The notes under the pieces are model-generated. The model saw nothing but the letters and a program-made list of their open reading frames with translations. It was not told the DNA's origin and ran no database searches. The position numbers were made by a program, and so were the translations under genes. DNA of 64,000 bases from Dehalococcoidia bacterium (GTDB lineage Bacteria; Chloroflexota; Dehalococcoidia; Lucifugimonadales; JAGWBF01). The stretch is taken from the NCBI GenBank assembly GCA_965207935.1, contig CBDBNM010000002.1, positions 397,692-461,691 of the forward strand. The letters are read 5' to 3'. How positions within the stretch are numbered: the stretch's first letter is position 1; each line of letters begins with the position of its first letter. This document shows, piece after piece, positions 1,241-55,501 of the stretch.

Positions 1241-1246
1241 GGGGCT

Positions 1247-2458
1247 CTATCCCCCGTTTTTCTTTGAGCGCTCTGAGGCCTCGGCTTCCGCCTTGGCGAA
1301 ATCATCTTCGCTGAAGTTATAGAGGGAAGCTCCGCCCTTCAGGATGTCCGCCGCCGTCTCCCGGGAGACGGTGCTGAGCAGGTTGTTGGAAACGTTAGGG
1401 AAGTTGGAGTCGAAGTGGGGGTAGTCGGTAGAGATGCACATCCGGTCCGCACCGATTAGGCCGGCGGTGGGCTCGATCTCCGGTTCGCTGCCTTCGACGG
1501 CCGCCCAGCAGTTGCGCCTGAAGTACTCCTTGGGTGTCATGGACAGGTATGGCGCGTGGGAGTCCCGGTAGTTGGCGTAGTCCCACTCGATGCGGGTCAG
1601 GAGGCCCGGCACCCAGGAGTTCTGGGCTTCCAGGAATCCCACCCTGAGCTTGGGATGGAACTCGTACACGCCGCCGGTGATCTGGGCGATGAGGGCTTGC
1701 TGCATCTCGATCCAGTGGCTGGCGACGTGCCTGGGGAAGCGGTTCTCCCCGTAGATCACGTTCATGTTGGAGTACCACGCCCCCGTGCCCTCGTGGAAGC
1801 ACCAGGACACATCCAGCTCCTCGTGGAGGCTGTAGAGGGGGTCCCAGTAGTTGGAGTGCCAGTAGTGCCCGTTCACGAAGTTGGGCCGCAGGAAAGAGCC
1901 CACAGCGCCCATGTCCCGGACGCACCGCACCAGCTCCCGGCAGGCGAGGTTGACGTCGTGCACGGGAAGCATGGCCACGAACTTCAGGCGGGCGGGGCTG
2001 TAGGAGCAGAAGTCATGGATCCAGTTGTTGTAAGCCTGGCATATGGCCAGGGACATCTCCGGGTCCATGTTGTTCCGGGCCAGCCAAGCCAAGCCGCCCG
2101 TCGGGAAGAGCACGGCGATGTCGATGCCCTCCATCTCCATGCCCATGACCTGGGCTTCCTCGTCGTAGTCCCGCTGGATGGCGAAGTCCAGCCGGCCGCT
2201 TGCCGCGAGCCTGGAGTCCGAGAGCGGCTGGCTGCCGGAGGTGGAGTTGCCCTTGGCACGCTTGCGGTACTGCTGGAGGTCCACATCCATGGACGCCGGG
2301 GTGTTGTCTATCACCACCATGCCCCGCCGGGGCTTCCCGTCGGACCCCACTGGCATCCGTATCCGGTCCTTGAACTCGTCATCCAGGTACCGCTCGAACA
2401 TGTCGGGGGGTTCCATGATGTGCATATCGCAATCGACGAACCGGAGTCCTTCTTTCAT
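1247..2458 (-). CDS. Amidohydrolase-2 family (ACMSD-like metal-dependent TIM-barrel hydrolase)
   Basis: 403-aa ORF with an N-terminal FVDCDMHIMEP metal-ligand context and a C-terminal ISTDYPHFD motif typical of the family. Its stop lies 6 nt upstream of the acs start, so the two look like one operon. Confidence 0.7.
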   Translation of the reverse strand: MKEGLRFVDCDMHIMEPPDMFERYLDDEFKDRIRMPVGSDGKPRRGMVVIDNTPASMDVDLQQYRKRAKGNSTSGSQPLSDSRLAASGRLDFAIQRDYDEEAQVMGMEMEGIDIAVLFPTGGLAWLARNNMDPEMSLAICQAYNNWIHDFCSYSPARLKFVAMLPVHDVNLACRELVRCVRDMGAVGSFLRPNFVNGHYWHSNYWDPLYSLHEELDVSWCFHEGTGAWYSNMNVIYGENRFPRHVASHWIEMQQALIAQITGGVYEFHPKLRVGFLEAQNSWVPGLLTRIEWDYANYRDSHAPYLSMTPKEYFRRNCWAAVEGSEPEIEPTAGLIGADRMCISTDYPHFDSNFPNVSNNLLSTVSRETAADILKGGASLYNFSEDDFAKAEAEASERSKKNGG

Positions 2459-2657: not shown

Positions 2658-2667
2658 TGGTATAAAT
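2658..2667 (+). promoter_or_regulatory. Possible extended -10 promoter (TGgTATAAAT) for SulP gene
   Basis: TGGTATAAAT lies about 40 nt upstream of the TTG start at 2705. No convincing -35 was found. Confidence 0.3.
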
Positions 2668-2704
2668 AGCTGAGCCAGCTTGGAGGGTTGATATTGGGGT
2701 AGGC

Positions 2705-4351
2705 TTGAGGCAACGAGTCGACCTGCAAACCATCCGCGGCGATGTCTTTGGAGGCATAGTTGCGGCCGTGGTGAGCCTGCCGCTTGCGCTGGCCTTTGGT
2801 GTGGCCTCGGGCCTTGGTGCTGCTTCAGGTCTGTATGGAGCGGTCGCCGTGGGCTTTTTTGCGGCGATATCCGGTGGGACCCGAACCCAGATATCAGGTC
2901 CCACCGGCCCTATGGCTGTGGCGATGGCGGTGGTGATCACCAGCCATGCGACGAGTCTCGCAGGTGCGTTTACGATTGTCATCCTGGCGGGGCTGATACA
3001 GATCATGCTGGGCGTACTGCGCATCGGCCGGTTCGTCGCCTACACGCCCTACTCTGTGATATCCGGGTTCATGTCCGGAATCGGCCTGATTATCATACTG
3101 GTACAGACGCTGCCCTTTTTGGGGTCAGACATCGCCAGTGGAGGGCCGATGGGAGCGGTCCGCGCCTGGCCGGCCGCCATAAGCGACGTGAATTTCAGTG
3201 CGCTGGCCATCGCGGTCTCCACTCTCGTGGTGGTCGTGGCCTGGCCATCCCAGCTCAGGAAGCTTATGCCCCCAGCGCTTGTGGCGCTCATATTCGGCAC
3301 GCTGCTGGGCGTATTTTGGTTGAGCGAAGCCCCGGTAATCGGAAAAGTTCCGACCGGCCTGCCAGAATTGCAACTGCCCGACCTTTCGACAGGCAACCTT
3401 TTTCACATCATCTATCCTGCCGTGACGCTCGCACTGCTCGGCTCTATCGACACCCTGCTGACCTCTTTGGTAGCTGATTCGATGACGCGCACTCGTCACA
3501 TGCCCAATCGCACGCTGGTGGGCCAGGGCGTTGGCAACATGGCCGCCGGCTTCATAGGTGGATTGCCAGGTGCTGGAGCCACAATGGGTACTGTGGTGAA
3601 CATACGGGCAGGCGGCAAGACGCCTCTTTCGGGAGTGGTTTCGGCGCTGATTCTGCTCGCGATTGTGCTTGGGCTGGGGAGATATGTTGAGGATGTCCCG
3701 CACGCGGTCCTCGCTGGCATCCTGATGAAGGTCGGTTGGGACATAATCGACTGGCGATTCATGACCAGGATATTCCGTGTTCAGCACGAACATCTCATTG
3801 TGATGGCTGTGACTCTCGGGCTGACGGTGTTCGTGGACCTGGTCACAGCGGTGACCATAGGTCTCATCATTGCCGGAATGGCCAGCGCACGCCAGTTCGA
3901 GCGGTTCGAACTCGACAGCGTGGTCTCGGTACCGCTGCTGGATCGGAATTTCCTGTTTACCGGGGGGAATAGAGGCGATGAGGGTGAGTGCCGGGAAGAC
4001 GAGGAGTGGGACGAATTCTCCGCGCACGTAGGGCTTGTAGCGCTGAAGGGGACCTTCTCGGTCGCGTCCGCGCACAAGCTCATGAACACGATCAGCTCCG
4101 ACATCCAGGAACATCAGGTCGTCATCTTCAATTTTACGGATACCATCTACATGGACGACAGCGCCGCTCTTGTTGTTGAGCAGTTGATCGATACGGCCAT
4201 AAAGCAGGATACCGGCTGCATAATCCTGGGGCTGGCCGGCCAGCCCGCTGTCACTCTCAAGGCGCTCGACGTACTGCGGCAGGTTCCGGGAAAGAACGTG
4301 GTAACGACCCTGGACGAGGCGAGAGACGCTGCGGCAGCGATGCTCAAGTAG
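2705..4351 (+). CDS. SulP family inorganic anion (sulfate/bicarbonate) permease with C-terminal STAS domain
   Basis: 548 aa with N-terminal GGIVAAVVSLPLALAFGVASG and TQISGPTGPMAV motifs and many TM segments. The soluble C-terminal ~120 aa look STAS-like (VVIFNFTDTIYMDDSAALVVEQL). Confidence 0.85.
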   Translation: MRQRVDLQTIRGDVFGGIVAAVVSLPLALAFGVASGLGAASGLYGAVAVGFFAAISGGTRTQISGPTGPMAVAMAVVITSHATSLAGAFTIVILAGLIQIMLGVLRIGRFVAYTPYSVISGFMSGIGLIIILVQTLPFLGSDIASGGPMGAVRAWPAAISDVNFSALAIAVSTLVVVVAWPSQLRKLMPPALVALIFGTLLGVFWLSEAPVIGKVPTGLPELQLPDLSTGNLFHIIYPAVTLALLGSIDTLLTSLVADSMTRTRHMPNRTLVGQGVGNMAAGFIGGLPGAGATMGTVVNIRAGGKTPLSGVVSALILLAIVLGLGRYVEDVPHAVLAGILMKVGWDIIDWRFMTRIFRVQHEHLIVMAVTLGLTVFVDLVTAVTIGLIIAGMASARQFERFELDSVVSVPLLDRNFLFTGGNRGDEGECREDEEWDEFSAHVGLVALKGTFSVASAHKLMNTISSDIQEHQVVIFNFTDTIYMDDSAALVVEQLIDTAIKQDTGCIILGLAGQPAVTLKALDVLRQVPGKNVVTTLDEARDAAAAMLK

Positions 4352-4461
4352 ACAATCCAACCCCTGGGACTTTGGTCTAGGGTGCTAGCCCATGTTTGTG
4401 GCGCATAAGGGTGCGGGCCAATAGAGGCGCGGTCCTTGAACTCGGCAATGCTCCGTCCTGG

Positions 4462-4481
4462 ATTGCGGCCTTCGCCGCAAT
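4462..4481. terminator. Hairpin ATTGCGGC-CTTC-GCCGCAAT between convergent SulP and rhodanese genes
   Basis: Perfect 8-bp GC-rich stem with a 4-nt loop in the 150-nt convergent intergenic gap. There is no clear U-tract. Confidence 0.4.
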
Positions 4482-4502
4482 GACGAGCGGGACTACGATG
4501 CG

Positions 4503-5339
4503 TCACCCTCCCGCCTCGATAGGGGTGTCGTCCCGGTTGCCCCACTCCTTCCACGAGGCGTCGTAGTTGCATGCCCGCTCATAACCCAGGAGCTTCAACA
4601 CCAGCGTGCTGTGACCAGCACGAATGCCGGCCTGTCAGTGGGCCAGCACCTCTTTTTCGGGGGTTATCCCCTTAGCCTCCAGGAGCTCCCGCATTTCATG
4701 GGCGGGCTTGAAGGTGTGGGTCCCGTCATCCATCAGGTCCGACCACTCCAGGTGATGGGCGCCAGGGATGTGCCCGGCCCGTTGGTTGCCCCGGGTGTTC
4801 TCCCCCGTGTACTCGGCCCGGCTCCGCACATCCCAGACCACCACGTCCGGGTCCTGGTACGCCTCCTTCAGACGCTCTGCGGTGACCAACAATGAGGGAT
4901 TCGGCTTGGGAGTGAACGAAGCCCCTTCCTTCCCCCTGCTTGGGGACATGCTCAATGGCCGGCCTTCCTCCAGCCACTTCTTCCAACCGCCGTTGAGCAC
5001 CTTGACCTTGTCGTGGCCGTAGTAGTTCAACACCCACCAGAACCTTCCGGCATACAGGGACCGGGTGTGGTCGTAGGCCACCACCAGGGTATCGTCCCCG
5101 ATGCCCAGCCCTTCCATCATGTGGGCGCACTGCTCGGGCGTAACAACGTGCACCTGGCCCGTGTCCTGGTTCTTCTCGTAGTTGTCGGGCACCACGACAG
5201 CGCCGGGAATGTGGGCGCGATAGTAGGAGGCCACGGGGTCCGTATCCACGATGCAGATGCCAGGGTCTTCCAGGTGCTCGGCCAGCCACTCGGTCTCAGC
5301 CAGGTATTCAGGGTGGGCATATCCTTCTGCTGTCGCCAT
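4503..5339 (-). CDS. Two-domain rhodanese / thiosulfate-3-mercaptopyruvate sulfurtransferase with in-frame TGA at the catalytic Cys position (candidate selenocysteine); track ORF 4635..5339 is the truncated version
   Basis: The track ORF ends ...EKEVLAH at TGA (4637..4635). The same frame continues [43 protein letters not shown] to TGA at 4505..4503. H-[TGA]-QAGIRAG matches the rhodanese active-site loop C-x-x-G-x-R. The total of 278 codons matches SseA-type enzymes. Confidence 0.75.
4605..4622 (-). promoter_or_regulatory. Putative bacterial SECIS-like hairpin downstream of rhodanese TGA
   Basis: The minus-strand RNA reads UGA-N12-CGUGCUG-GUCA-CAGCACG. This is a perfect 7-bp stem whose apical loop begins with G, 19 nt from the UGA. 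The GCUGGUCACAGC apex resembles the GGUC-type apex of the E. coli fdhF SECIS (from memory). Confidence 0.5.
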
Positions 5340-5536
5340 CCCGCTCCTCCTAATGCCAGCTATCGGACTCGTCCCAGCCTATAGCCGTCCCCCAGCCCAG
5401 TCAACATCAGGCCCCGTACACCAGTCACCCTTGACCGGGAAACGGGCGCACCCTACGATGGTGTTCCGTTCCAGGCCCGGATGGGGCCGAAAAGGCGCAT
5501 GGGGGAGTCCACTGCTGCAAGAAAAAGGAGGTTGTC

Positions 5537-6454
5537 ATGGAGTGGGAGTACGAACTGGTTGCCGAATGCGGTCGGCTTACCGAAGGCCCCGTCTGGGACG
5601 GAGAAACCCTCCTGTTCAGCCACATCCCGGGCAGCAGGATCATGCGGTACGACCCCGATTCGGGGGCCTGCACCGAGTTCCGGACCGACACCAACCACAT
5701 CAACGGGCTGAACTTCGACACTCAGGGTAGGCTGTACGGGTGCTGTTCGGGGGGACGCTCCATCGTGCGCCTGGAGCCCGACGGCTCAACCACCACCGTC
5801 GTTGACCGCTGGGAAGGACTGCGCTTCAACACCCCCAACGACCTGGCCCTGGACAGCAAGGGTCGCATCTGGTTCACCAATCCCTGGAACGAAGGCAATA
5901 TCGACCCCAGCGAAAGCATGGAGATGGACCACGAAGAGGCCTTCCGGGCAGACCCCCAGCCCGACGGCAGCTTCAGCATCTCCAGGGTCACCTTCGACAC
6001 CACCAAGACCAACGGCATCCTGGTGTCTCCCGATGAGACCATCCTGTACGTGGCCCAGAGCGACGGCGTGTCAGGACGCACCCGTGAGCTCAGAGCCTAC
6101 CCCATCCAGGCCGACGGCTCTCTTGGGCCGTACACCCTGCTCCACCAGTTCGGGGAGGACCACAGGGGTCCCCAGCGGGGCATCGACGGCATGTGCCTCG
6201 ACAGCGAGGGGAACATCATCGCCACGGCGGGTATCAACACCAGCGGCCCCGGCCCCATGATCTACGTCTTCGAAGCGCCCAGCGGTCGGGTGCTGGAGAC
6301 CCACCGGGTGCCCGACGGCGTGAATACCCCGACGAACTGCGCTTTCGGCGGGCCGGACCTGTCCACCTTGTACATCACCTCGGGCCAGGGGCACCTTCTG
6401 AAGGTCGGCAACACGGGCCGCCGTGGGTGGATCCTCTGGCCCCCGGCGAAGTAG
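5537..6454 (+). CDS. SMP-30/gluconolactonase/LRE family beta-propeller hydrolase
   Basis: 305 aa with EGPVWD, NGLNFD, FNTPNDLALDSKGRIWFTN and PTNCAFGGPDLSTLYITS, all characteristic of SMP-30 lactonases. AAGGAGG RBS upstream. Confidence 0.8.
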   Translation: MEWEYELVAECGRLTEGPVWDGETLLFSHIPGSRIMRYDPDSGACTEFRTDTNHINGLNFDTQGRLYGCCSGGRSIVRLEPDGSTTTVVDRWEGLRFNTPNDLALDSKGRIWFTNPWNEGNIDPSESMEMDHEEAFRADPQPDGSFSISRVTFDTTKTNGILVSPDETILYVAQSDGVSGRTRELRAYPIQADGSLGPYTLLHQFGEDHRGPQRGIDGMCLDSEGNIIATAGINTSGPGPMIYVFEAPSGRVLETHRVPDGVNTPTNCAFGGPDLSTLYITSGQGHLLKVGNTGRRGWILWPPAK

Positions 6455-6517
6455 CGGCGGAGGGGCCTAAAGCCAGGAGAGGCTCAGGCATCACGTAAGC
6501 CGGAGCGGCGGGGTCCG

Positions 6518-6709
6518 CTATACCTGGTAGCGCTGGAGGAGCTGGCGGGCGATGACCAGGCGCTGGATCTCGTTGGTGCCCTCGCCGATGATCATCAGGG
6601 GCGCATCCCTGTAGTAGCGCTCAATGGGGTTCTCCTTGATGTACCCGTAGCCCCCGAATATGCGCATCGCCTCCAGAGTTACCTCGGCGCATATCTCGCC
6701 GGCGAACAG
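6518..6709 (-). repeat. Direct repeat copy A (192 bp) of acyl-CoA dehydrogenase 3' end
   Basis: Hand alignment with 10466..10657 has no gaps and 14 mismatches in 192 nt (about 93% identity). 13 mismatches are synonymous and 1 is Gly/Ser. Homology ends abruptly after GGCGAACAG (6701..6709). Confidence 0.9.
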
Positions 6710-6730
6710 TAGCAGGAATGCGCCTCTCAT
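6518..6730 (-). pseudogene. Displaced 3' fragment of acyl-CoA dehydrogenase (last 63 codons) with an 8-codon novel N-terminus
   Basis: The translation ...[62 protein letters not shown] is identical over 59 aa to the C-terminus of the intact gene at 10466..11626. Its ATG (6730..6728) overlaps the TAA of the 969-aa gene as TAATG. Confidence 0.85.
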
Positions 6731-10273: not shown

Positions 10274-10465
10274 GTAAGTTCAATGTAATCAACAGTATGT
10301 TACCGCAGATTCTGGACTCCTATTCGACAATCTGCTCAAGAAACTGTAAGCCATAGGGTGGAGGACGTGGGGGAGCTCGTCGTGATCTTCGGTGTCTTTG
10401 CCTGCTTCACATATTTGCTAGGCAACAGGCAGAGCCTGCGCGCGGGCTTAGTCACCCAGGGACCT

Positions 10466-10657
10466 CTACACCTGGTAGCGCTGGAGGAGCTGGCGGGCGA
10501 TGACGAGGCGCTGGATCTCGTTGGTGCCCTCGCCGATTATCATCAGAGGCGCATCTCGGTAGTAGCGCTCGATGGGATTCTCCTTGATATATCCGTAGCC
10601 CCCGAAGATGCGCATCGCCTCCAGGGTCACCTCGGCGCATATCTCGCTGGCGAACAG
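10466..10657 (-). repeat. Direct repeat copy B (192 bp), the functional 3' end of the intact acyl-CoA dehydrogenase
   Basis: See copy A at 6518..6709. Confidence 0.9.
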
Positions 10658-11626
10658 CTTGGCCATTCCCGCTTCCAGGTCAACCCTCAGGCCCTGGTCC
10701 TTCTTCTCGGCGGCCTTGTAGGTCAGCAGGCGGGCCGCCTCTATCTTCGTCCCCATGTCCGCCAGCTTGAGCTGGATGGCTTGGTGGCGGGAGATGGGCG
10801 ACCCGAAGGTGCGCCGGCCCTGGGCGTACTTGATGGCCGCTTCGAAGGCGGCCGTGGCCACGCCGACAGCGCGGGCTGCCACGTTGATGCGACCAGTCTC
10901 CAGACCGGCCATCACCTGCTGGAAGCCCTGGCCCTCCACCCCTCCCACCAGGTTGTCGGACCCGACCCGGAAGTTGTCGAAGATCAGCTCACAGGTGTCC
11001 AAGCCCCGGTATCCCAGCTTGTCCAGGTGCCTGCCCACCTCGAAGCCTTTCCCGCCCTTCTCTACGATGAAGCAGCTTATCCCTTCGTGGGGAGGAGTGG
11101 CGTCCTTGTTGGTCTTGGTTATCAGGGCGAAGGTGTCCCCGTGCTGCCCATTGGTGATGAACATCTTGGTGCCGTTGATCAGGTACTCTTCGCCGTCGCG
11201 GGTTGCGGTCAGCTCTATGGCCTGCACATCGCTTCCGGCGTTGGGTTCGGTCAGGGCGAGCCCGCCCCGCTTTTCGCCGCGGGCCATGGCGGGCAGGAAC
11301 CGGGCCTTCTGCTCTTCGGTCCCGTAGTGGGTAACCACGTAGGTCATGATGTGATGGGTGCCGATAATGCCGCTAATGCTCATCCAGCCCTTGCACAGCT
11401 CTTCGAAGATCATGGCGAAAGTGGTGTAGTCCAGCCCCATGCCGCCGTACTCTTCGGGGATGGTTATGCCAAAGAGGCCCATCTCCTTCATCTTTTCGAC
11501 CAGCTCCAGGGGGACGATGTCGTTGCGCTCGTACTCCTGGACGATGGGCTCCACATCCCGCCGGACAAACTCTCGCACCATGTTGATGATCTGGGTGCGA
11601 GCTTCCTCAGGTGTTCTGGTTGTCAC
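10466..11626 (-). CDS. Acyl-CoA dehydrogenase (short/medium-chain type)
   Basis: ACAD hallmarks are present: GLALTEPNAGSD, the FITNG region and the C-terminal [23 protein letters not shown]. The track ORF extends to 11689. I prefer the GTG at 11626 because GAGGAGGAAGC lies 9 nt upstream and the resulting ~386 aa length is typical. Confidence 0.9.
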   Translation of the reverse strand: MTTRTPEEARTQIINMVREFVRRDVEPIVQEYERNDIVPLELVEKMKEMGLFGITIPEEYGGMGLDYTTFAMIFEELCKGWMSISGIIGTHHIMTYVVTHYGTEEQKARFLPAMARGEKRGGLALTEPNAGSDVQAIELTATRDGEEYLINGTKMFITNGQHGDTFALITKTNKDATPPHEGISCFIVEKGGKGFEVGRHLDKLGYRGLDTCELIFDNFRVGSDNLVGGVEGQGFQQVMAGLETGRINVAARAVGVATAAFEAAIKYAQGRRTFGSPISRHQAIQLKLADMGTKIEAARLLTYKAAEKKDQGLRVDLEAGMAKLFASEICAEVTLEAMRIFGGYGYIKENPIERYYRDAPLMIIGEGTNEIQRLVIARQLLQRYQV

Positions 11627-11793
11627 CAAGAGCTTCCTCCTCGATAACGGTGACCGTGATGCAGCTATTCTAGCGAGGGAGGCTGGCAAAGGTCTAGGTT
11701 CCGGGCCTCTACTTCAATTGCTCTCCAGCAAGCAGTCCGAATATAATTGGCCTAAGTTAGACCCTAGAGTTTACTGGCCCGGCCTTCTACGCT

Positions 11794-16089: not shown

Positions 16090-16326
16090 GTGAGGATCGA
16101 ACCTGTGTCAGCAGTGGATGGACACCTCGGCGAGTTTGAACCTGTCGTCGACGGAATGGAGGAGCCAATGACCGAGGAATATCGAAAATTTGACCCAGCG
16201 GACTACATCAAGACCACGAAAGATGTCCAGGGGCTCCTCGATGCCTCTGCGGATGAGGACCCTGGGGACGGGGTCGTGATTCGAGCTGTGTTGAAGTACA
16301 TCGCCCAAAGACACCGTTCGTCTTGA
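16090..16326 (+). pseudogene. Truncated HigA-like addiction-module antidote protein (N-terminal half only, HTH missing)
   Basis: KFDPADYIKTTKDVQGLLDASADEDPGDGVVIRAVLKYIAQRHR matches the pattern wD-a-eyL...i..YL.aaled.Dp..i..AL.diArArG of COG3636/TIGR02684-type antitoxins (from memory). It stops where the helix-turn-helix should begin. There is no RelE/HigB-like partner upstream. Confidence 0.5.
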
Positions 16327-34346: not shown

Positions 34347-34976
34347 TCAGGGGCAGCTATCATGGTCGTCTATGAGGCAAGCCCGAATGTAGGTGACCGC
34401 CCGCCACCTATCATCCACGGAAAGAAGCTTTGCAAAGGAGGGCATGACGGTTACACCATTGGTTATCCAGCCGTAAATGCCGGCATCCGTCTGGTCCACC
34501 ACGTAGGAATCCTGCAGGTTCGGGGTGATAGTGTACGGTTGGGAATCGGTGCCGTAGCCGAAGTCCTCTTTCATGGTCTTGAGCACAGGTCCGTCACCCA
34601 GCCCCTGGGCGCCGTGGCAGAACACGCAGTTGGTGGAGTAGATGTACTCCCCCGCCGCCAGGACCGACCCTCCGGGAGTGAACGGATTTTCGCCCGTGCT
34701 TAGCTGCACCCCAGTGATGGGTACGGAACCCGCCGGAGCCGACAATACCGGGGGCTCGTGGGGTCCGTAGGACTGCTGGTAGTGCATCTCGTAGAAGATG
34801 TCCACGGGATATGTCCCGCTGGCGCAGCCAGCGGCTGCCAGGGCAACCACTACGAGAATGAGGGATGACAGGACAAGGGTCCGCCCCTTCGATAGTCTCG
34901 AAAAGACAGATGCCCCACGGCGTTTGCGTGCCACGGGATTCCCCTTCCCGGCGTTCAATACCAGATGGTCCTTCAT
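34347..34976 (-). CDS. Membrane-anchored monoheme cytochrome c (ActE-like)
   Basis: Single CVFCHG heme motif, an N-terminal TM/lipobox-like LAAAGC, and a distal Met region TVMPSF. Confidence 0.7.
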   Translation of the reverse strand: MKDHLVLNAGKGNPVARKRRGASVFSRLSKGRTLVLSSLILVVVALAAAGCASGTYPVDIFYEMHYQQSYGPHEPPVLSAPAGSVPITGVQLSTGENPFTPGGSVLAAGEYIYSTNCVFCHGAQGLGDGPVLKTMKEDFGYGTDSQPYTITPNLQDSYVVDQTDAGIYGWITNGVTVMPSFAKLLSVDDRWRAVTYIRACLIDDHDSCP

Positions 34977-34981
34977 GGGAG

Positions 34982-35494
34982 CTACACTTTACCCCGCTTG
35001 ACATCTTCTGCCCCCGCCTGGGTCAGTGCCTGCTCCACGCGGTCGACCTCCTCGGGCTCGCACTCCACCAGGACGCCGACATACCCTTCGGTGATGCGGT
35101 CGTCGTAGAGCCCCAGGGACGGCCTAGGCAGCCGAGACTCGAATATGATGCCCAGGACGGTGAACAGGATGGCCCCCAGCATCGTTCCTTCATAGGTCAC
35201 GATGGCCATGGGGGGCAGGGACAGGATGGGTTTCCCTCCCGTTACCAGGGGGTATGCCATCTGGGTCATCGAGGTCAGCAGGATGCCTGCGGTTAGCCCG
35301 CAGAGGGCTCCGACGAAGGGAAAGACGTAGAGGCGGTGGCTGCTTTCCTTCTCACCGAAAGCCCCCTCAGGGTACGGCGCTCCCGTAAGGAAATCGTAAT
35401 CGTTGTCGCTTATGCCCATTCGCTGGAGGCTGTCTCCCGCCTCTGCAGCATAGTTGGCATCGGAATATAGGCCCAGTACACCTGTTTTAGCCAT
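34982..35494 (-). CDS. ActD-like (DUF3341-type) membrane subunit of quinol:cytochrome c oxidoreductase
   Basis: 170 aa with N-terminal VLGLYSDANYAAEAGDSLQRMGIS and two TM segments. The position within the ACIII-like cluster supports the call; the family assignment is from memory. Confidence 0.5.
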   Translation of the reverse strand: MAKTGVLGLYSDANYAAEAGDSLQRMGISDNDYDFLTGAPYPEGAFGEKESSHRLYVFPFVGALCGLTAGILLTSMTQMAYPLVTGGKPILSLPPMAIVTYEGTMLGAILFTVLGIIFESRLPRPSLGLYDDRITEGYVGVLVECEPEEVDRVEQALTQAGAEDVKRGKV

Positions 35495-35552
35495 CTACCG
35501 CCTCCTTCCTCTATCCTCGCCCTTGGGCGGGCATGGAGGAGTTTGCCCGCAA

Positions 35553-36929
35553 CTACTCCTCCCGGAGTACCGCGGGTACCTTTCTTCTACCGATTTGTAT
35601 CTCATCCCGGGCAATCTCTCCCTCCTTGATGTCGTAGAGGGGGATGAGGGGGAACACCTTGGCAAACAGCAGCATAAGCATGCAGACCAGCGCAAAGGTG
35701 CCCATAACTATGACCACCTCGACCACGCTGGGGGCATAGGTGAAGTAGGTGAAGTTCATGACCTGCTTCTGGGCAAGGCCGGGCACGATGATCAGGAAGC
35801 GCTCCAGCCACATGCCGATGTTCACCGATATGCAGGCGATGATCATCAACCCCGGGTTCCTGCGCACGCCCTTGAACAGCCACATGCCGACAGGAATGAA
35901 GTAGGTGGTACCCACAAAGGTGATGAACCACCAGCTCCACGGTGCTTGGGCCGATAAGAAATCCTTAACGGATATCTCATCCGCTTCCAGGCTGTAGAGG
36001 CCGAAGAAGAACTCCAGGACGAAGAAGAAGAACCAGCCGGTGGCAACCACCATCAGCAGCCTGCCGAGGGCATCGAAATGCTCGGGGCGTATGTACTCAT
36101 GCCATCCGTACAGCCAGCGCATGACGGCCATGACTATCACCACGGCTGCAACGCCCGAGTGGACGGCGCCGATGACGAAGTAAGGCGGGAAGATGGTGGA
36201 ATGCCAGCTCTTCACCGAGATGGCCATGCTGAAGTCGAATGACACTATGCTGTGGACCGACACGAAGACGGGAAGAATCAGCGCCGAGAGCAGGATGCCT
36301 GCGATTATCTGCAGCTTCCACTGCCTCGGATTTCCCCGCCAGCCCAATGCGAGCACGGAGTACATCTGGCGTCGTATGCCCGTCGAGCGGTCCCTTACGA
36401 CAGCCAGATCGGGGAGAAGGGCGATGTAAACGAACAGGATGCTGGATGTCAGGTAGGTGAACACCGCTGACGGGTCCCAAATGAGGGCCGACCGCACGTT
36501 GGGATATACGCCCCTGGCCCAGTCGAAGGGGAAGACCCAGTAGAAGACCCGCCAGGGACGCCCTGCATGAATCAGGGGCATCAGCATGGCTGTCATCAGG
36601 GAGAAGACCGTCAGGACCTCGGCGGCCCTGGTGGCAGGGCGCCTCCACTCCGCCTTGGACAGCCGAAGGATGGCTGAGAGCATAACGCCGGCGTGGGATA
36701 TGCCGATCCAGAAGACGAAGTTGGTGATGAAGAAGCCCCACATGACGGGGCGGTTCAGGCCGCTGACGCCCAGTCCTTTGTTGAACATGTAGCCGGCGGC
36801 GCACATTGCGCCCACGACGATGATGCCAAAGAAGGCGATCAGCCCCCATTGCCATTTGGGGTGCAAGAAGATGGTGTGAAGCAGGTCCCGGTTTATCTGC
36901 CGGTCTGCCAGCGCCCTACCTTCCTGCAT
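35553..36929 (-). CDS. NrfD/PsrC-family polytopic quinol-interacting membrane subunit (ActC/ActF-type)
   Basis: 458 aa with about 10 TM and VMWGFFITNFVFWIGISHAGVMLSAILR, which is typical of NrfD-like proteins. Confidence 0.75.
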   Translation of the reverse strand: MQEGRALADRQINRDLLHTIFLHPKWQWGLIAFFGIIVVGAMCAAGYMFNKGLGVSGLNRPVMWGFFITNFVFWIGISHAGVMLSAILRLSKAEWRRPATRAAEVLTVFSLMTAMLMPLIHAGRPWRVFYWVFPFDWARGVYPNVRSALIWDPSAVFTYLTSSILFVYIALLPDLAVVRDRSTGIRRQMYSVLALGWRGNPRQWKLQIIAGILLSALILPVFVSVHSIVSFDFSMAISVKSWHSTIFPPYFVIGAVHSGVAAVVIVMAVMRWLYGWHEYIRPEHFDALGRLLMVVATGWFFFFVLEFFFGLYSLEADEISVKDFLSAQAPWSWWFITFVGTTYFIPVGMWLFKGVRRNPGLMIIACISVNIGMWLERFLIIVPGLAQKQVMNFTYFTYAPSVVEVVIVMGTFALVCMLMLLFAKVFPLIPLYDIKEGEIARDEIQIGRRKVPAVLREE

Positions 36930-36957
36930 GGAATTCCTTCATCTTGTTACACATCCT

Positions 36958-38433
36958 CTATTCCGGCTTCCCAAGCACCAGGTACTTACCCTTCATGAAG
37001 GGGCGGTACAGGATGTACATCAGCCCTTCCTTCATCTCCCAGACCGACATGAGCGGGATCAAGCGGGTGCCCAGCAGGAAGATAAATGCGGCGCCGCTCA
37101 TCATCCCAAGGACCATCAGGATATCCAGCAGATCGGGAAGCACGGGCAGGAGCTGGGTTGCGATGCCTCCGTGGGCAGCGTCGAAATGGGCTATGGACTC
37201 CGCGCCTACATCCTTGATGTTGAAGGCGGGAACATAGGTGCGCACCATCATGAAGAAGGCGCCGATGAGCACCGACGCTCCGGCGATGGTAGGCCCGATG
37301 ATGCTCTTGCGCACCCCGTTCCACAGCAGCAGGGCAAAGGGGATGATGAAGCCGAAGAAGAAGTTCAGCAAGAACGGAGTCCGGTAAGACTCGACCATCA
37401 GGAGCTTGATGACGCTCTGCTCGGTCTCGTCTCTGCCGTACCAGAAGGTCATGAACTCGGAGAACCAGAAGTAGCCCCAGAGCAGGGTCAAGCCCAGGAG
37501 CACCTTGGCGAAGGACCAGAAGGGGTCGAGGCCGATGTACCGGTCGTAACCCCCCACCTTCTTCATCAGGAACAGGACCACCAGCAGCAGCCCCGCCGAG
37601 GCCTGGATGCCTGTAAGCACATGGTGGGCCGCAAATATGGAGTCCCGCCAGCCGGGTATCAGGCTAAGGGCGAAGTCTAAGCTGATCAGGGTGTGCACCC
37701 AGACCAGCAGCATGAAGTAGAAAGCGCCGAGGATAGCCAGCTGCCCCTTCTGGACGTTCCAGTCGCGAACAGTCCCTTGCCAGCCCCAGGCGAGGCGTCC
37801 CATGAGCCGGGCGCGCAGCCCATTGGAGACCTGGGCTATCTGGGCCATGTCGGGCCGTGCAGACACCCAAAGTATTGCCAGCCCGCACACCGCTACTCCA
37901 ATGAGCCCGGCCATATCCCACCAGAGGGGCGCCCCGATTGGTGCGCTGAACCAGATGGTGCGCCGGTCCTTGCCCAACTCCAGATAGCCATCGCCATTCA
38001 GATCGATGCCCGGAAGGACGAGCATCATTGGTATGAAGGCCACGACTGCGAGGATTCCGACCAGGGAGAACATCTCCGAAGCCCGGGAGAAGGGCCTGCG
38101 CCAGTGGTTCTTTGTCCATCGGAAAGCGATGGCAGCCAGGGGCGCGGTGGTAGCTGTCACTATGATGAATGCGAAAGCGGCGGCGTAGTAGCCGTACTCA
38201 TTCCTGGCCGAATCGGAGAGGCCCACATCCAAGGCCCTGATCAGGAAGGCCAGGATGCCCAGGGCGAACAGCCCGCCCGCCACAGCCACAGCCAGCCAGA
38301 ACTTGGGGCATGCGGCATCGTACTTCTCAGCGAGGTCCTGCATAACAGACCTGTCGGTGAGATGTATCTCGGGAGGGCCGGTTTCCACGGCATGTCTAGC
38401 CATGTCCACCATCTCCTGTACGACGTGGGTCAA
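36958..38433 (-). CDS. Second NrfD-like polytopic membrane subunit (ActC/ActF-type)
   Basis: 491 aa polytopic protein, paralogous in architecture to 35553..36929. The likely start is ATG 38403, which overlaps the ActB2 stop. Confidence 0.7.
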   Translation of the reverse strand: MTHVVQEMVDMARHAVETGPPEIHLTDRSVMQDLAEKYDAACPKFWLAVAVAGGLFALGILAFLIRALDVGLSDSARNEYGYYAAAFAFIIVTATTAPLAAIAFRWTKNHWRRPFSRASEMFSLVGILAVVAFIPMMLVLPGIDLNGDGYLELGKDRRTIWFSAPIGAPLWWDMAGLIGVAVCGLAILWVSARPDMAQIAQVSNGLRARLMGRLAWGWQGTVRDWNVQKGQLAILGAFYFMLLVWVHTLISLDFALSLIPGWRDSIFAAHHVLTGIQASAGLLLVVLFLMKKVGGYDRYIGLDPFWSFAKVLLGLTLLWGYFWFSEFMTFWYGRDETEQSVIKLLMVESYRTPFLLNFFFGFIIPFALLLWNGVRKSIIGPTIAGASVLIGAFFMMVRTYVPAFNIKDVGAESIAHFDAAHGGIATQLLPVLPDLLDILMVLGMMSGAAFIFLLGTRLIPLMSVWEMKEGLMYILYRPFMKGKYLVLGKPE

Positions 38434-39211
38434 TCTTCTTTAGATAGATCACGTTGGGCTCGGTGCCGATGTTCTTGAGAAGCTGGTATGCCCGGTCGTC
38501 TTTGAGGACCTTCTCGTTTGTCTCTTCATCGACCTCGACGTACTGGCTCAGCTGGCTGTCGGGGTCGTTGTAGTCTCCGAATATCAGCGTACCTGTCGGG
38601 CAAGCCTGGACGCACGCGGGGGCGAAGTTCCCTTCGGCCAACGCGCGGTCGTTCAGCTCCCCGCCCTCGGCAGCTTCCACCTTGCGCTCGCCCCGCCGGA
38701 GCCTCTGGATGCAGAAGGAGCACTTCTCCATGATTCCGCGGCTTCTGACGGTCACGTCCGGGTTAAGCTGGTTGCGCATCCGCTCCGGCCACACGGGTTC
38801 CCAGTAGTTGAAGAAGCGCACCTGGTAGGGGCAGTTGTTGGCGCAGTAGCGGGTGCCCACGCAGCGGTTGTACACCTGGACGTTCAGGCCCTGGTCGTTG
38901 TGGTAGGTGGCATACACCGGGCATACCGGTTCGCAAGGCGCGTTCTCGCAGTGCTGGCACAGCACGGGCAGGAACCGCGCCTTGATGTCCTGGAAGGGCG
39001 CATCCTCGGGATGGCTGCGGTACTCTTCAGGAACTTCCCAGTAGCGCTGTATGTGTATCCACTCTATGGGCCTTCGCTCGTGGAAGCGCTCCTCGGTGTT
39101 GAGCTGCACGTTGTTTTCGACCTGGCAGGCAACCACGCAGGCTTGGCATCCCGTGCACTTATCTATATCTACGATCATTCCCCACTTGTGGGGCTTCCTC
39201 TGGGCCATCAC
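38396..39211 (-). CDS. 4Fe-4S ferredoxin-type iron-sulfur subunit (ActB2 / PsrB-like)
   Basis: The Cys clusters are CTGCQACVVAC, CQHCENAPCEPVCP, CVGTRYCANNCPY and CSFC. Confidence 0.85.
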   Translation of the reverse strand: MMAQRKPHKWGMIVDIDKCTGCQACVVACQVENNVQLNTEERFHERRPIEWIHIQRYWEVPEEYRSHPEDAPFQDIKARFLPVLCQHCENAPCEPVCPVYATYHNDQGLNVQVYNRCVGTRYCANNCPYQVRFFNYWEPVWPERMRNQLNPDVTVRSRGIMEKCSFCIQRLRRGERKVEAAEGGELNDRALAEGNFAPACVQACPTGTLIFGDYNDPDSQLSQYVEVDEETNEKVLKDDRAYQLLKNIGTEPNVIYLKKIDPRRTGDGGHG

Positions 39212-39263
39212 CTAGCCTGCCTTTCCTTAGGTCGGGCTACTTTCAGCATCGCTTCCACTCCCC

Positions 39264-41627
39264 CTAGCTCCCCGTCACCTGCACAGGGTCCTCGTGCTCT
39301 GTGCCTATTGGGAAGGCGGTAACGATTCCTTCGAACTTAGAGACTCTGATGTTGCGTCCCGTGGGGGTTACGCGCACCTGGGTGGATGCCCACGCCGAAG
39401 ACCCGGTGTCGGGGTCGGTCTGCTGGGGGCTGAGCAGGGACAGGATGTTTCCTCCCCGGACCTCACCATCCCTTGTGGCATACTCGATGCCGGGCAGATG
39501 GCCCTGCCCCACAGGTATCCCAACAACATCGGGTGGAATGGCCGGATGAGGGTATACCACAGCCTCGATATCGCCCTCGGTGGAGACTATGCTTACCACA
39601 TCCCCTTCCTGTAGGCCCATCTGCCTGGCACGGTGGGCATTGATCTCGACCCACGTCTGCCAGGTCACGGTCGTCAGGGGATCGGGCGCTGCTTGGAGCC
39701 AGGGAATGTGCGCTCCCCTGCCGTCCAGGATCGAGTTGTGCAGGAAGGGCACCAGGTGGAATATGTTTCCACCCGCAGGGCCATGGTAACGTGGCCGAGA
39801 GTGCTGCTCGGCGATCCGCCTCAGGTCCGGCGGTGCAGGAGCGTCGGCCCCCGCCGTGGCTTCCCTGTCTTCCCAGCCGCCCCGCTCCAAGAGCATATTC
39901 CAGAAGGCAGGGAATGTGAGGGCGCCGGGTTGGTCTTCTCCATCCTTCAGCAAGGGCGAGCCTCTGCCCGTATCGTACAGCCTCTGGGCAGCATCCCGGA
40001 GCACGCCGTAGAAAGTGTCGGGCAGGCCATCATCCAGGCCCAGGTCCCCCGATAGCGCCAGGAGCAGGTCCGGGAAGCTGCGAGGGTCGAGGTCGGGCAG
40101 GGGGTTCACTACCGGCTGCTGGAATCCGACCGTCTGGAAACCCGGGCCGGGCTCGGGAACATCATCCCCCCAGTCTTCCAAGGCTGACCGCACCGGGAGG
40201 ACCAGGTCCGCCCGCTGAGCTGTATCGTCCATAAAGCTGGAGAAGCTCACTACCAAGGTGTTGTCCGGCGCGCTGTCCAGCGCGTTGGCAAAACCGGTGC
40301 TGCTGGGCAGGTTGTACGCCGGGTTGGCCCCGCAGACCATCAGCGCCTGAAGCTGGCCTCCACGCAGGTTAGAGGCAACTTCGCCCCAATCATCCATGCT
40401 GCCTATCGGGTATGCCAACTCCAGCTCTTCCAGCGGAGGGGCCGGATTGAACACGACCCCGCCGTCTCCAATGCCTCCTCCTACGCTGCCGGCCAAGTAG
40501 TTGAGGAGGTACACGGCTGCCATGCTGGAGGGGCCGTTGGTGTGGGCAGACGCTTCACCACCGCCGATGGCCAGCGGCGCGCTGGAGTGGGCAAACTCCG
40601 CTGCGATTCTCTCGATCATGTGGGCCGCCGTTTCGCCTCGTATGGACTCGGGTACACCCACATACCAGGGGTTGGACGGATCGACGATATGCTCAGCGCT
40701 GAAGGGGTCAAGGGCTGCCAACAGGTCGTCCCGGGTGGCGCCTCCCGCCATGCCGGCGGCTGTATCGCCGTCAGGTCCGGCGATGATTGCGTGGGCCATG
40801 CCCAGGGCTACGACTCCCTCCATGCCGGTCCTGACAGGTATCCACTCGTCGGCGCTGGCGGCCGTAGCGGAGTAGCGAGCTCCTATGTGCACGAAGAAAC
40901 CTCGAACGCCCCCGTGTTCATGGGACCGAAAATTCCCGAATCCCCGGGAGAGCTGAACTGGCGAGAGCCAGGTGGAGAGGAAATCGGCGCCAAAGGAGAG
41001 CAGGTAGGTGGAGTTCTCCAGGTCGAAGCTGGGAAGGTCCTTCTGGCCGAACAGGTTGGCGGAGGTGGACCTCAGGACTGAATCGCCCATAATGTCCAGC
41101 CCCAGGTAGCGCCCGCCGTAGGCGGATGCGAACCGGTCCACCACCACTGCCTGGTGGCCTCGCATGGGGGCTGTGATCATCATCGTAGCGGAGCTGTTGC
41201 CGGAAGTCCTAATGCCTCCAAGCCTGCCGGCTATAGTGTTCATCGCCTCATCCCAGGAGATGGGGGCGTAGGCGCCCTCCCTCCTGTTGCCGCTCCTTCT
41301 CATTGGCCCGGAGAGGCGGTCAGGATGGTACAGGGACTGGAGGGCCCCATCGCAGCGCACGCTCTGCTTGCCTGCGTTTGTGCGGTACAGGGGATTCCCC
41401 CTGACCTTCTTGGCTCGGCCCTCCATCACACGGACGAGGATTCCCTCCCTCTCGGGGCACCCGCCGCACAGGGTGGCATACCAGGTGTCCCGTCCCCTGA
41501 CCAAGTCCTCGGGGATATCGACGGGGCTCTGTATCTGCATCTCGCTGTCGGGGAACACGTTGCACGCAACGGCGCCCAGCGCCGAGATGCCCGCCCATTT
41601 CAGGAAGTTTCTGCGTGTTACCTTCAT
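39264..41627 (-). CDS. Molybdopterin-oxidoreductase-like large subunit with Tat signal (ActB1-like)
   Basis: The Tat motif MKVTRRNFLKWAGISALGAVA starts at ATG 41627, 7 nt after the ActA stop. The body has DMSO-reductase-superfamily architecture. The track start at 41678 is probably too far upstream. Confidence 0.75.
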   Translation of the reverse strand: MKVTRRNFLKWAGISALGAVACNVFPDSEMQIQSPVDIPEDLVRGRDTWYATLCGGCPEREGILVRVMEGRAKKVRGNPLYRTNAGKQSVRCDGALQSLYHPDRLSGPMRRSGNRREGAYAPISWDEAMNTIAGRLGGIRTSGNSSATMMITAPMRGHQAVVVDRFASAYGGRYLGLDIMGDSVLRSTSANLFGQKDLPSFDLENSTYLLSFGADFLSTWLSPVQLSRGFGNFRSHEHGGVRGFFVHIGARYSATAASADEWIPVRTGMEGVVALGMAHAIIAGPDGDTAAGMAGGATRDDLLAALDPFSAEHIVDPSNPWYVGVPESIRGETAAHMIERIAAEFAHSSAPLAIGGGEASAHTNGPSSMAAVYLLNYLAGSVGGGIGDGGVVFNPAPPLEELELAYPIGSMDDWGEVASNLRGGQLQALMVCGANPAYNLPSSTGFANALDSAPDNTLVVSFSSFMDDTAQRADLVLPVRSALEDWGDDVPEPGPGFQTVGFQQPVVNPLPDLDPRSFPDLLLALSGDLGLDDGLPDTFYGVLRDAAQRLYDTGRGSPLLKDGEDQPGALTFPAFWNMLLERGGWEDREATAGADAPAPPDLRRIAEQHSRPRYHGPAGGNIFHLVPFLHNSILDGRGAHIPWLQAAPDPLTTVTWQTWVEINAHRARQMGLQEGDVVSIVSTEGDIEAVVYPHPAIPPDVVGIPVGQGHLPGIEYATRDGEVRGGNILSLLSPQQTDPDTGSSAWASTQVRVTPTGRNIRVSKFEGIVTAFPIGTEHEDPVQVTGS

Positions 41628-41634
41628 TGGTCCT

Positions 41635-42276
41635 CTAGTAGTGACAGGTGGTGCAATCGGTGGGGGCATCGTAATCACGATGGCAGTCCACGCAATCGCC
41701 CATCTTCAAGCTCCGTTCCTGTTTGATCTTGGTCATCTCCCGCACATCGCCGTGACACATGGTGCACACCTGTTCCACTGGCGATATCCCGTTCGCCTCA
41801 GCAGCGTCGATCACACTCTGCTTCTGACTGAAGAATCTTACGTGGGGTTCGTGGGCGAACTGCACATGGTCGGGGATGCGGTGCACCTTCTCCCAATCGA
41901 TAGGCTGGGGTGTGGCCCCAGGCACGATCACCCCCGAACTATCCCTCCCCGCGTACTCCAGCAGTTTAGCGATCTCAACGTTGGACTCGCCGGTGACGGT
42001 GGTATGGCAGATGAGGCACTGCTCCACCGCAGGAACGGTGGCTGATTCGCCGGTTACGACGTTCCGGTGGCAGAACTCGCAGGCGATGCCTTCGTCATCG
42101 ACGTGGATGTCGTGGGGAAAGGCGATGGGCTGGTCGGGGCCGCCTGCACCGAATCCGAATAGTGGTGTGGACCACCACGCCGTCAGAACGTAAATGAGCA
42201 CGAACAGCATGATGCCGGCTGACGCCAGTCCTCCCAGGGCCAGGGGCACTATTCCTATTCGAGGCAGCCTTGGCAT
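41635..42276 (-). CDS. Membrane-anchored pentaheme cytochrome c (ActA-like)
   Basis: Five CxxCH motifs (CEFCH, CLICH, CTMCH, CVDCH, CTTCH) and an N-terminal TM. Confidence 0.85.
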   Translation of the reverse strand: MPRLPRIGIVPLALGGLASAGIMLFVLIYVLTAWWSTPLFGFGAGGPDQPIAFPHDIHVDDEGIACEFCHRNVVTGESATVPAVEQCLICHTTVTGESNVEIAKLLEYAGRDSSGVIVPGATPQPIDWEKVHRIPDHVQFAHEPHVRFFSQKQSVIDAAEANGISPVEQVCTMCHGDVREMTKIKQERSLKMGDCVDCHRDYDAPTDCTTCHY

Positions 42277-43112: not shown

Positions 43113-43143
43113 AGGTCCCGACCTCTCCCCCCGTCTGCCCACC

Positions 43144-43273
43144 CTACTTCCTGCGCCCGAACTCCCGTTCCAGGTGGTAGGAGCTAAGGTGGATCATGGT
43201 GGGCCTGCCGTGGGGGCAGGTGTGGGGGCTGCCGCACTCCCTTAGCTGCCTTACCTGACCCTCCATTTGCTCC
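43144..43273 (-). pseudogene. Displaced 3' fragment of mutL (last 42 codons plus stop); direct repeat copy A
   Basis: It translates to EQMEGQVRQLRECGSPHTCPHGRPTMIHLSSYHLEREFGRRK*, against EQMEGLVRQLRECDSPHTCPHGRPTMIHLSSYHLEREFGRRK* in the intact mutL. There are 9 mismatches in 130 nt (7 synonymous) and no gaps. Confidence 0.85.
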
Positions 43274-43282
43274 ACGCAATTC

Positions 43283-44723: not shown

Positions 44724-44751
44724 CTGCCTTACCAGACCCTCCATTTGCTCC
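44622..44751 (-). repeat. Direct repeat copy B (130 bp), the functional 3' end of mutL
   Basis: See 43144..43273. Homology ends after the shared GACCCTCCATTTGCTCC. Confidence 0.9.
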
Positions 44752-55482: not shown

Positions 55483-55501
55483 AGGTACGCGCGGTCTTCT
55501 C

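Follow-up and report, generated by a model that had tools for sequence, protein, structure and literature searches.

Selenocysteine (Sec)-containing rhodaneses were first predicted by Zhang, Fomenko and Gladyshev in 2005: among the 15 new selenoprotein families that they predicted from Sargasso Sea data was the COG2897 family "Rhodanese-related sulfurtransferase", which had 3 sequences and for which a bacterial selenocysteine insertion sequence (bSECIS) element was drawn (PMC1088965). In Global Ocean Sampling (GOS) data, 8 Sec-containing rhodanese sequences of cd01449 and 1 of COG2897 were found against thousands of Cys homologues (PMC2398784), and rhodanese forms 1-5, some of them with UxxG, appear beside ArsC UxxC forms in a review of 2026 (PMC13188914). 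Two Dehalococcoidia metagenome-assembled genomes with 49 and 46 selenoprotein genes are among the ten richest bacteria in BSepDB (PMC13326102). Here, a rhodanese-type sulfurtransferase gene interrupted by an in-frame UGA codon was analyzed in a 64,000-nucleotide stretch of contig CBDBNM010000002.1 from a Dehalococcoidia bacterium; this whole stretch is referred to as the window. A preliminary, sequence-only reading had proposed that the UGA encodes Sec and had noted that selenoproteins of this type were predicted from marine metagenomes, as the two surveys cited first indeed report. The gene is most probably genuinely Sec-encoding, with selenocysteine as the catalytic residue (estimated probability, roughly 0.9). 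The UGA lies on the catalytic column and is conserved, as are the reading frame that follows it and a SECIS-like hairpin.

The gene has much in common with the published COG2897/cd01449 Sec family: the same PF00581 two-domain build of the SseA type, Sec in place of the catalytic Cys, a UxxG motif (U-Q-A-G), a predicted bSECIS directly downstream of the UGA and widespread Cys homologues. The U-Q-A-G motif corresponds to the UxxG of published COG2897 form 4, the match being made by family descriptors (PMC13188914, PMC1088965, PMC2398784). Given that it fits these descriptors, the window gene is a further member of a family known since 2005. The present results go somewhat beyond the earlier reports in that the Sec form is the rule in the sampled, mostly Dehalococcoidia clade, that the Sec rhodanese is present as shortened entries in the public protein collections searched, and that the SECIS appears to overlap and co-vary with codons of the active-site loop.

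The coordinates of all features are collected in Table 1. Translation agreed with the sequence-only reading in that the open reading frame (ORF) of the annotation track ends with ...EKEVLAH immediately before a TGA, past which the frame remains open for 43 sense codons up to a second TGA (234 + 1 + 43 = 278). The track thereby splits the gene, as had been pointed out, by placing its stop at the Sec-position UGA, and the records of relatives are likewise short. A Pfam search run with Cys substituted at the TGA matched PF00581 in two stretches of the read-through protein (121.5 bits against a cutoff of 22.2), and the length of the protein is that of two tandem rhodanese domains (~270-290 residues). 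End-to-end alignments were obtained with the Cys rhodaneses 1uar from Thermus thermophilus (residues 6-277, E 4.7e-53) and 1e0c, RhdA from Azotobacter vinelandii (residues 15-275, E 3.3e-43); together with 1urh (Escherichia coli SseA) and 1rhd (bovine rhodanese), full-length homology extended over E values from 4.7e-53 to 1.5e-33. The proposal of a full-length two-domain sulfurtransferase is thus upheld. The protein scored 141.6 bits against the NCBIfam equivalog for the 3-mercaptopyruvate sulfurtransferase SseA (NF008557), for which the curated cutoff is 250.

In the structure-sequence alignments, the catalytic Cys of 1uar, 1e0c and 8k55 (YCRIAERS, HCQTHHRS and YCRIGERS, respectively) falls in the TGA column, where the full-length homologues read CQ[AG]GIRAAH, so that the earlier assignment of the TGA to the active-site Cys holds. 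The aligned residue is the persulfide-forming catalytic Cys, Cys230 in RhdA and Cys237 in E. coli SseA. Like the Cys rhodaneses, the window protein has an inactive N-terminal domain and a catalytic C-terminal domain, in which the catalytic residue comes first in a six-residue active-site loop; this loop length is typical of sulfurtransferases within the rhodanese/Cdc25 superfamily. By contrast with those enzymes, the catalytic residue is encoded by UGA, and the loop reads QAGIRA instead of RIAERS (1uar) or QTHHRS (1e0c). The loops presumed for comparison in SseA (GSGVTA) and bovine rhodanese (RKGVTA) are both unlike QAGIRA, and the loop U-Q-[AG]-G-I-R-A as a whole is unlike the TST, MST, RhdA and CysA/SseA loop sequences.

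In a collection of 5.8 billion proteins, 3109 homologues were found, of which the best 120 clusters (50-87% identity) were examined. Among these, 103 stop short of the catalytic column by exactly one residue, with ...AH or ...AY as the last residues and lengths of mostly 231-237 residues (range, 231-245), and 17 are full-length and carry CQ[AG]GIRAA[HQ]. In none of the 103 short clusters does the annotation extend through the UGA codon. At the DNA level, 80 loci were obtained when GTDB r232 was scanned with each species represented by a single genome. Dehalococcoidia account for 62 of them, the others being labeled as further Chloroflexota including SAR202, Binatia (5), Methylomirabilota (1) and a few other or dubious groups, and in many of the 80 the tblastn matches span residues 1-278. 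The catalytic codon is TGA in 78 of the species representatives and TGT or TGC in the remaining 2 (L061 and L067). In contrast to the 3 Sargasso Sea and 8 + 1 GOS sequences, the Sec form is the rule here, both among the species representatives and among the best 120 clusters.

The downstream frame was compared in 86 Sec-form genes, a set made up of the species loci and their tandem paralogues, the window gene and a small number of loci from metagenomes. The in-frame stop codon is TGA in all 86, never TAA or TAG; their terminal stops are mixed (TAG in 50, TGA in 21 and TAA in 15). After the in-frame TGA, 40-55 codons remain open in every gene, with no frameshifts, and the consensus of this region across the Sec forms is QgGIRAAHG.FvL.LlGy..a.NYDaSmgEWaNrdDtP. 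The ratio of nonsynonymous to synonymous substitution rates (dN/dS) over codons +11 to +38 past the UGA has a pairwise median of 0.19 among relatives, at a synonymous rate (dS) of 1.25. The 40 codons upstream of the UGA are under looser constraint (dN/dS 0.28, dS 1.33). Between the window and its closest relatives, 39 of 40 post-UGA residues are identical at a dS of 0.26 (L007) and 37 of 40 at a dS of 1.05 (L001). Decay of the 43-codon region in relatives, which the sequence-only reading had named as a sign against Sec, was not seen: the region is intact and under purifying selection. Such selection implies that the region is translated and functional, which excludes a pseudogene. Tandem rhodanese paralogues, each with a TGA at the catalytic codon and a downstream hairpin, were also observed, in L008-L011 and L023 (at ~2150-2800 and ~3700) and in L070 and L079 (at ~3681 and ~4530-4645).

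Logan contigs, rather than raw reads, were placed on positions 4540-4760; they came from a run of the source sample, two sponge-metagenome runs and a marine-metagenome run. No alternative letter was present in these contigs at 4635-4637 or in 4603-4628, and hence none of them has the TGY codon that the sequence-only reading had suggested looking for. The same contigs vary at third-codon positions on either side (4578, 4581, 4584, 4587, 4590, 4599, 4602, 4629, 4659-4674 and others). All of the sampled words of the window stretch (100%) were found in three runs of one sample. Given that partial matches were obtained in many sponge-metagenome runs, the source organism is probably a sponge-associated Dehalococcoidia.

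A short hairpin downstream of the UGA had also been put forward, and its predicted fold bears out the stem, the loop and the spacing. It begins 12 nt after the UGA, with a UGA-to-loop distance of 19 nt and a folding energy of -11.2 kcal/mol (z -4.7), and 0 of 200 shuffled sequences fold as well. The bSECIS criteria in the literature are an apical loop of 3-9 nt, an upper stem of 4-16 bp, a UGA-to-loop distance of 16-37 nt, a minimum free energy (MFE) of -7.5 kcal/mol or lower and a G at the first or second loop position, with G or U as the usual next base (PMC13188914). With a 4-nt GUCA loop in which G is followed by U, a 7-bp stem and the distance and energy given above, the rhodanese hairpin lies within all of these limits. 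An extended SECIS with a lower stem is possible by prediction, and the MFE fold of 4598-4637 has an energy of -18.4 kcal/mol (z -2.2). The element is like the E. coli fdhF-type SECIS and the bSECISearch model in being a coding-region hairpin directly after the UGA with a small loop of G then U, the 19-nt distance, the 7-bp stem and an MFE below -7.5 kcal/mol. It differs in having no sequence similarity to fdhF and no Rfam model; the majority loop in relatives is a 3-nt GGC, and the GUCA of the window clade is shifted by ~2 nt.

Constraint on this segment is evident at synonymous sites. In the first ten codons after the UGA, dS is 0.30, as compared with 1.25-1.33 in the flanking codons, an approximately four-fold reduction. 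Codon choice after the UGA departs from the background in the same genes: CGT makes up 94% of Arg codons (background, 11%), GCG 94-100% of Ala codons (31%) and CAC 100% of His codons (76%). A hairpin test was defined by a stem of at least 6 bp and a loop of 3-6 nt with G first, starting 19-33 nt from the U of the UGA. It was passed by 86 of 86 Sec forms, by 6.3% of resamples in which these proteins were recoded with synonymous codons and by 1 of 5 close Cys forms, the metagenome scan for Cys-form controls having mostly given the distant CRIGERS clade and left these 5 usable. Constraint at the RNA level beyond the protein requirement is therefore present.

The hairpin differs in form between groups of relatives. 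The majority form is CCGUGC-GGC-GCACGG. The window, L001 and L007 share the form listed in Table 1, in a register ~2 nt off the majority. In a marine form (L038, L041, L052 and L057) the hairpin is GGCGAAC..GUUCGUC and lies farther downstream, and in L070 and L079 it is C[GA]GCGCA-GUC-UGCGCUG. The hairpin thus appears to have been rebuilt in at least three registers, those of the window clade, the majority and the marine form. In five relatives (L017, L020, L021, L022 and L026), the G19-C25 pair is replaced by U-A, a compensatory change that alters two amino acids jointly (Ala to Ser and His to Asn). The one close Cys form that passed the hairpin test, L081, has TGC at the catalytic codon and keeps the SECIS-like hairpin uccgugcGGCgcacgga (2188..2232) whole and in its customary place; this locus probably represents a recent Sec-to-Cys replacement.

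Several results weigh against a Sec-encoding gene. Covariation is thin: one two-sided pair was found, in 4 sequences of the majority register (the five relatives with the changed G19-C25 pair form four distinct rows of the alignment), and 87.6% of cells are paired. The argument for RNA constraint accordingly rests on synonymous-site conservation and on the repeated re-invention of the hairpin at the same distance, not on covariation. The MFE of the whole segment (-18.4 kcal/mol) is not distinguishable from that of synonymous resamples (-17.6 kcal/mol) in this GC-rich gene, and no SECIS or other relevant Rfam family was matched, either in the whole window at the gathering threshold or in 4540-4680 at E <= 10. 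The 64-kb window also contains no selA, selB, selD or tRNA-Sec. ARAGORN found no tRNA in the window, Pfam found SelA, SelB or SelD domains in 0 of the ~60 window ORFs scanned, and no match to E. coli SelA, SelB or SelD was obtained by tblastn in the window or the Sec-form loci.

Components of the machinery were encountered at other loci. When ARAGORN was applied to all loci, a tRNA-Sec with a UCA anticodon was found on a Candidatus Binatia contig (L064, 1740..1835), 1.2 kb upstream of a Sec-form rhodanese, and was confirmed by Rfam RF01852 (73.8 bits against a gathering score of 47). Sec decoding is well supported for the lineage, and from sequence it is predicted for this genome. On two metagenome contigs, SelD homologues with 40% (L135, 2711..3625) and 38% (L098, 2406..3374) identity to E. 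coli SelD adjoin Cys-type two-domain rhodaneses with the CRIGERS loop. SelD matches occurred only beside Cys-type rhodaneses, an arrangement that hints at a functional link between rhodanese and selenophosphate synthetase.

In principle, the TGA could have arisen in a Cys-type rhodanese by nonsense mutation, or be an artifact of sequencing or assembly, and the 234-residue ORF would then be a dead remnant. Gene callers do take TGA as a stop, and the short clusters are annotated without exception as if it were one (0/103 through the codon). Such an origin has scarcely any probability, given that the same-codon TGA recurs in 78/80 species-level genomes and 86/86 Sec-form genes to the exclusion of other stops, that the downstream frame is intact at a dN/dS of 0.19, that the contigs of four independent runs are concordant and that the relatives are drawn from many studies and not from one contaminated assembly lineage. 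Recoding of the UGA to a residue other than Sec, either Cys through a SelB-dependent or Sec-like tRNA or else Trp or Gly under a reassigned code, also has points in its favor. Mukai et al. reportedly described in 2016 such tRNAs carrying Cys in some bacteria, insertion of Sec and of Cys at a SECIS-dependent UGA looks the same at the level of sequence alone, and W appears at the equivalent ArsC-like codon in some gene calls on short contigs. Yet TGA serves as an ordinary stop in this DNA, given that ~19 of 52 long window ORFs terminate at it, and a rhodanese with Trp or Gly as its catalytic residue would be inactive. The orthologue in L064 has a genuine tRNA-Sec beside it, and Dehalococcoidia are documented as selenoprotein-rich (PMC13326102). 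Taken together, these considerations make recoding to another residue very improbable.

Sec insertion in bacteria is generally inefficient, in competition with RF2, and a short product is expected under selenium limitation. The UGA might thus act mainly as a true terminator, yielding a 234-residue inactive rhodanese-like product, with the hairpin serving as a pause or attenuator and read-through being minor or selenium-dependent. However, that product would have neither the catalytic residue nor the remainder of the active-site loop, and it would lack a conserved segment of the domain as well. The 40 codons after the UGA are, moreover, more constrained than those upstream, and simple termination does not explain why TGA alone is used or why a loop with G first lies at the SECIS distance. 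Termination as the main role of this codon is consequently judged very improbable. The window gene, on the other hand, shows several features expected of bacterial selenoprotein genes: a UGA/Cys pair with homologues, conservation of UGA only, together with a coding downstream frame, and a predicted bSECIS.

Decoding by SelB and tRNA(Sec) in this organism, the incorporation of selenium, the substrates and the chemistry are predictions drawn from sequence, and a Sec-encoding rhodanese may be pictured as follows. The hairpin would most likely act as a bacterial SECIS, bringing SelB-GTP-Sec-tRNA(Sec) to the ribosome so that UGA235 would be read as Sec and not as a stop. The ribosome would go on through the 43 codons, and the loop U-Q-A-G-I-R-A and the catalytic domain would thereby be completed, the latter at its C-terminal end. 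The selenolate would then attack a sulfane-sulfur donor (thiosulfate, a persulfide or 3-mercaptopyruvate) to give an Se-S intermediate, which would hand the sulfur to a thiophilic acceptor, presumably in a double-displacement catalysis of the rhodanese type as in the Cys enzyme. Being more nucleophilic and having a lower pKa, Sec would favor both donor attack and sulfur hand-over. A more far-reaching proposal, which we regard as unlikely, is that the Sec-rhodanese is more than a faster sulfurtransferase and serves as a dedicated selenium/sulfur trafficking protein of selenoprotein-rich Dehalococcoidia, in which Sec is ancestral and near-obligatory and the SECIS constrains and co-evolves with loop residues. 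The protein may, for example, carry perselenide or selenosulfide to SelD or into the biosynthesis of cofactors, and the paired Ala-to-Ser and His-to-Asn change and the hairpin in three registers may be signs of such co-evolution.

The sequence-only reading had pointed to a further redox gene with the same combination of features, and the follow-up agrees: an ArsC-like gene in the window has an in-frame TGA followed by a hairpin, and the TGA is conserved in L163 and L164. This hairpin starts 15 nt after the UGA. Its 3-nt GUU loop (G then U), 8-bp stem, UGA-to-loop distance of 23 nt and folding energy of -8.6 kcal/mol all lie within the bSECIS limits given above. Full-length homologues read FYCWVR-C-TTC-RKAKEFL with Cys in the TGA column, so the TGA falls on the first Cys of a CxxC motif, as in ArsC-family UxxC selenoproteins, in which an ArsC/Spx fold carries Sec at this position. 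Like the GOS "Arsenate reductase 2, UxxC" and NF041106 proteins, the ArsC-like gene combines the PF03960 fold with a predicted Sec in place of the first Cys (UxxC) and with a hairpin spaced as a SECIS would be. It scored 33 bits against NF041106 (ArsC_rel_Se_1; cutoff, 85) and 64 against TIGR01617 (cutoff, 75), and so is not a member of those curated subfamilies. The TGA is kept both in the close relative L163, which shares MutS-ArsC-x-MutL synteny, and in the distant L164. In L164 the post-TGA sequence differs and the geometry is the same: the spacer is 15 nt long, and a stem of 8 bp, one of them G-U, carries a GGC loop of 3 nt.

Gene calls for the ArsC-like family show a different distortion from those of the rhodanese. 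Among the best 120 ArsC-like clusters, 91 are N-terminally shortened calls beginning 3' of the TGA. Many calls on contigs shorter than 1.3 kb (P0128, P0132-P0134 and others) were seen to have W in the Sec column (..VKWNTCRKA..); here the gene caller has probably translated TGA under genetic code 4, which would be another kind of selenoprotein mis-annotation. A screen of the window for more TGA-containing genes by GC content at third-codon positions, motif and hairpin found only the rhodanese and ArsC-like genes. A candidate at 16110..16108 was rejected because it looked non-coding.

The consequences are in part practical. More than 100 relative clusters are recorded without the catalytic residue and part of the domain, and functional or metabolic inference from them is wrong. 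The annotation of the rhodanese and ArsC-like genes can now be corrected and the organism flagged as a probable Sec user. Two selenoprotein genes within 64 kb make it a likely Sec user with a selenium requirement, which bears on cultivation and on symbiont physiology. In addition, a SECIS lying over the loop codons would illustrate cleanly, in a natural setting, how the codons of a catalytic loop can be constrained by an RNA element.

Table 1. Positions of the rhodanese and ArsC-like genes, their predicted recoding signals and other features of the window
Feature	Position	Strand	Remarks
Full-length rhodanese-type sulfurtransferase gene	4503..5339	(-)	278 codons including Sec235, plus terminal TGA stop (4505..4503)
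Rhodanese ORF of the annotation track	5339..4635	(-)	234 residues, then TGA (4637..4635)
Rhodanese start codon	5339..5337	(-)	ATG
Shine-Dalgarno-like GGAGGA	5345..5350	(-)	5 nt 5' of the rhodanese ATG; read off the sequence
Catalytic C-terminal rhodanese domain	4539..4883	(-)	Residues 153-267, split by the UGA; best Pfam stretch of the read-through protein
In-frame UGA, candidate Sec235	4635..4637	(-)	Opens loop U-Q-A-G-I-R-A; structure alignments and relatives
Post-UGA region	4503..4634	(-)	43 sense codons and terminal stop; rest of the active-site loop and conserved C terminus
SECIS-like hairpin CGUGCUG-GUCA-CAGCACG	4605..4622	(-)	Perfect 7-bp stem, 4-nt loop starting GU
Possible extended SECIS	4600..4631	(-)	Lower stem GCCGGC / GCUGGU under the apical hairpin, AUUC internal bulge; prediction
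ArsC/Spx-family thioredoxin-fold gene, candidate selenoprotein (UxxC)	46935..47309	(-)	124 codons; PF03960, 59.5 bits against 24
In-frame UGA of the ArsC-like gene	47271..47273	(-)	Codon 13, first position of U-S-A-C; context WWPR-U-SAC-RKAKEFL
SECIS-like hairpin GCGAAAGA-GUU-UCUUUCGC	47237..47255	(-)	8-bp stem, 3-nt loop starting GU
SulP/STAS permease gene	2705..4351		Convergent with the rhodanese gene
SMP-30/gluconolactonase-like gene	5537..6454		Divergent from the rhodanese gene
Amidohydrolase gene	2458..1247		
Putative high-copy short element	4437..4510		Just 3' of the rhodanese stop
Direct repeat, 199 nt	6511..6709 and 10459..10657		92% identity
Acyl-CoA dehydrogenase gene, intact	11689..10466	(-)	
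Acyl-CoA dehydrogenase C-terminal fragment	6730..6518	(-)	70 residues
Direct repeat, 139 nt	43138..43276 and 44616..44754		92% identity
mutL	46361..44622	(-)	
Small ORFs between the 139-nt repeats	43283-43732 and 43874-44284		No Pfam match
Alternative complex III-like cluster	34347..42276	(-)	
NAD-linked formate-dehydrogenase-like pair	50917..55560	(-)	

The neighbors of the rhodanese gene in the window are the SulP/STAS permease, SMP-30/gluconolactonase-like and amidohydrolase genes. In its closest relatives, L007 and L001, the SulP gene is missing and the amidohydrolase gene directly follows the rhodanese. Comparison of the window with these two loci revealed no conserved operon partner pointing to a substrate and, given that the SulP/STAS neighbor is absent from both, no such partner can be inferred.

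Just 3' of the rhodanese stop, a hairpin, ATTGCGGC-gaa-GCCGCAAT, was observed in a segment with a k-mer depth of ~950-14,600, as compared with ~10-100 in its flanks, in Logan contigs from the source runs and a sponge metagenome. This excess points to a very high-copy short element in those samples. The element has one copy in the window and none in the fetched loci, and it is absent at this site in the closest relatives.

Two further sites in the window carry direct repeats. The copies of the 199-nt repeat correspond to the 3' end of the acyl-CoA dehydrogenase gene, which is present as an intact gene and as a C-terminal fragment. Between them lie two ORFs with no Pfam match (969 and 220 residues), and the GC content falls to ~0.55. 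This arrangement looks like a ~3.9-kb insertion into the 3' end of the acyl-CoA dehydrogenase gene with target duplication. The copies of the 139-nt repeat correspond to the 3' end of mutL and flank two small ORFs, in a style of insertion like that at the acyl-CoA dehydrogenase site.

The formate-dehydrogenase-like pair in the window consists of a 950-residue subunit with 2Fe-2S, 4Fe-4S and molybdopterin domains and a Nuo51-like FMN subunit. Given that the large subunit is an uninterrupted ORF with no in-frame TGA, it is presumably a non-Sec form, although the organism apparently uses Sec elsewhere. The alternative complex III-like cluster comprises cytochrome c7-like, molybdopterin-family, 4Fe-4S, NrfD-like, ActD and cytochrome c components and is followed by CcmF and CcmH (cytochrome c maturation) and an AhpC/TSA-thioredoxin-like protein. 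By its predicted gene content, this cluster indicates an aerobic or microaerobic respiratory lifestyle.

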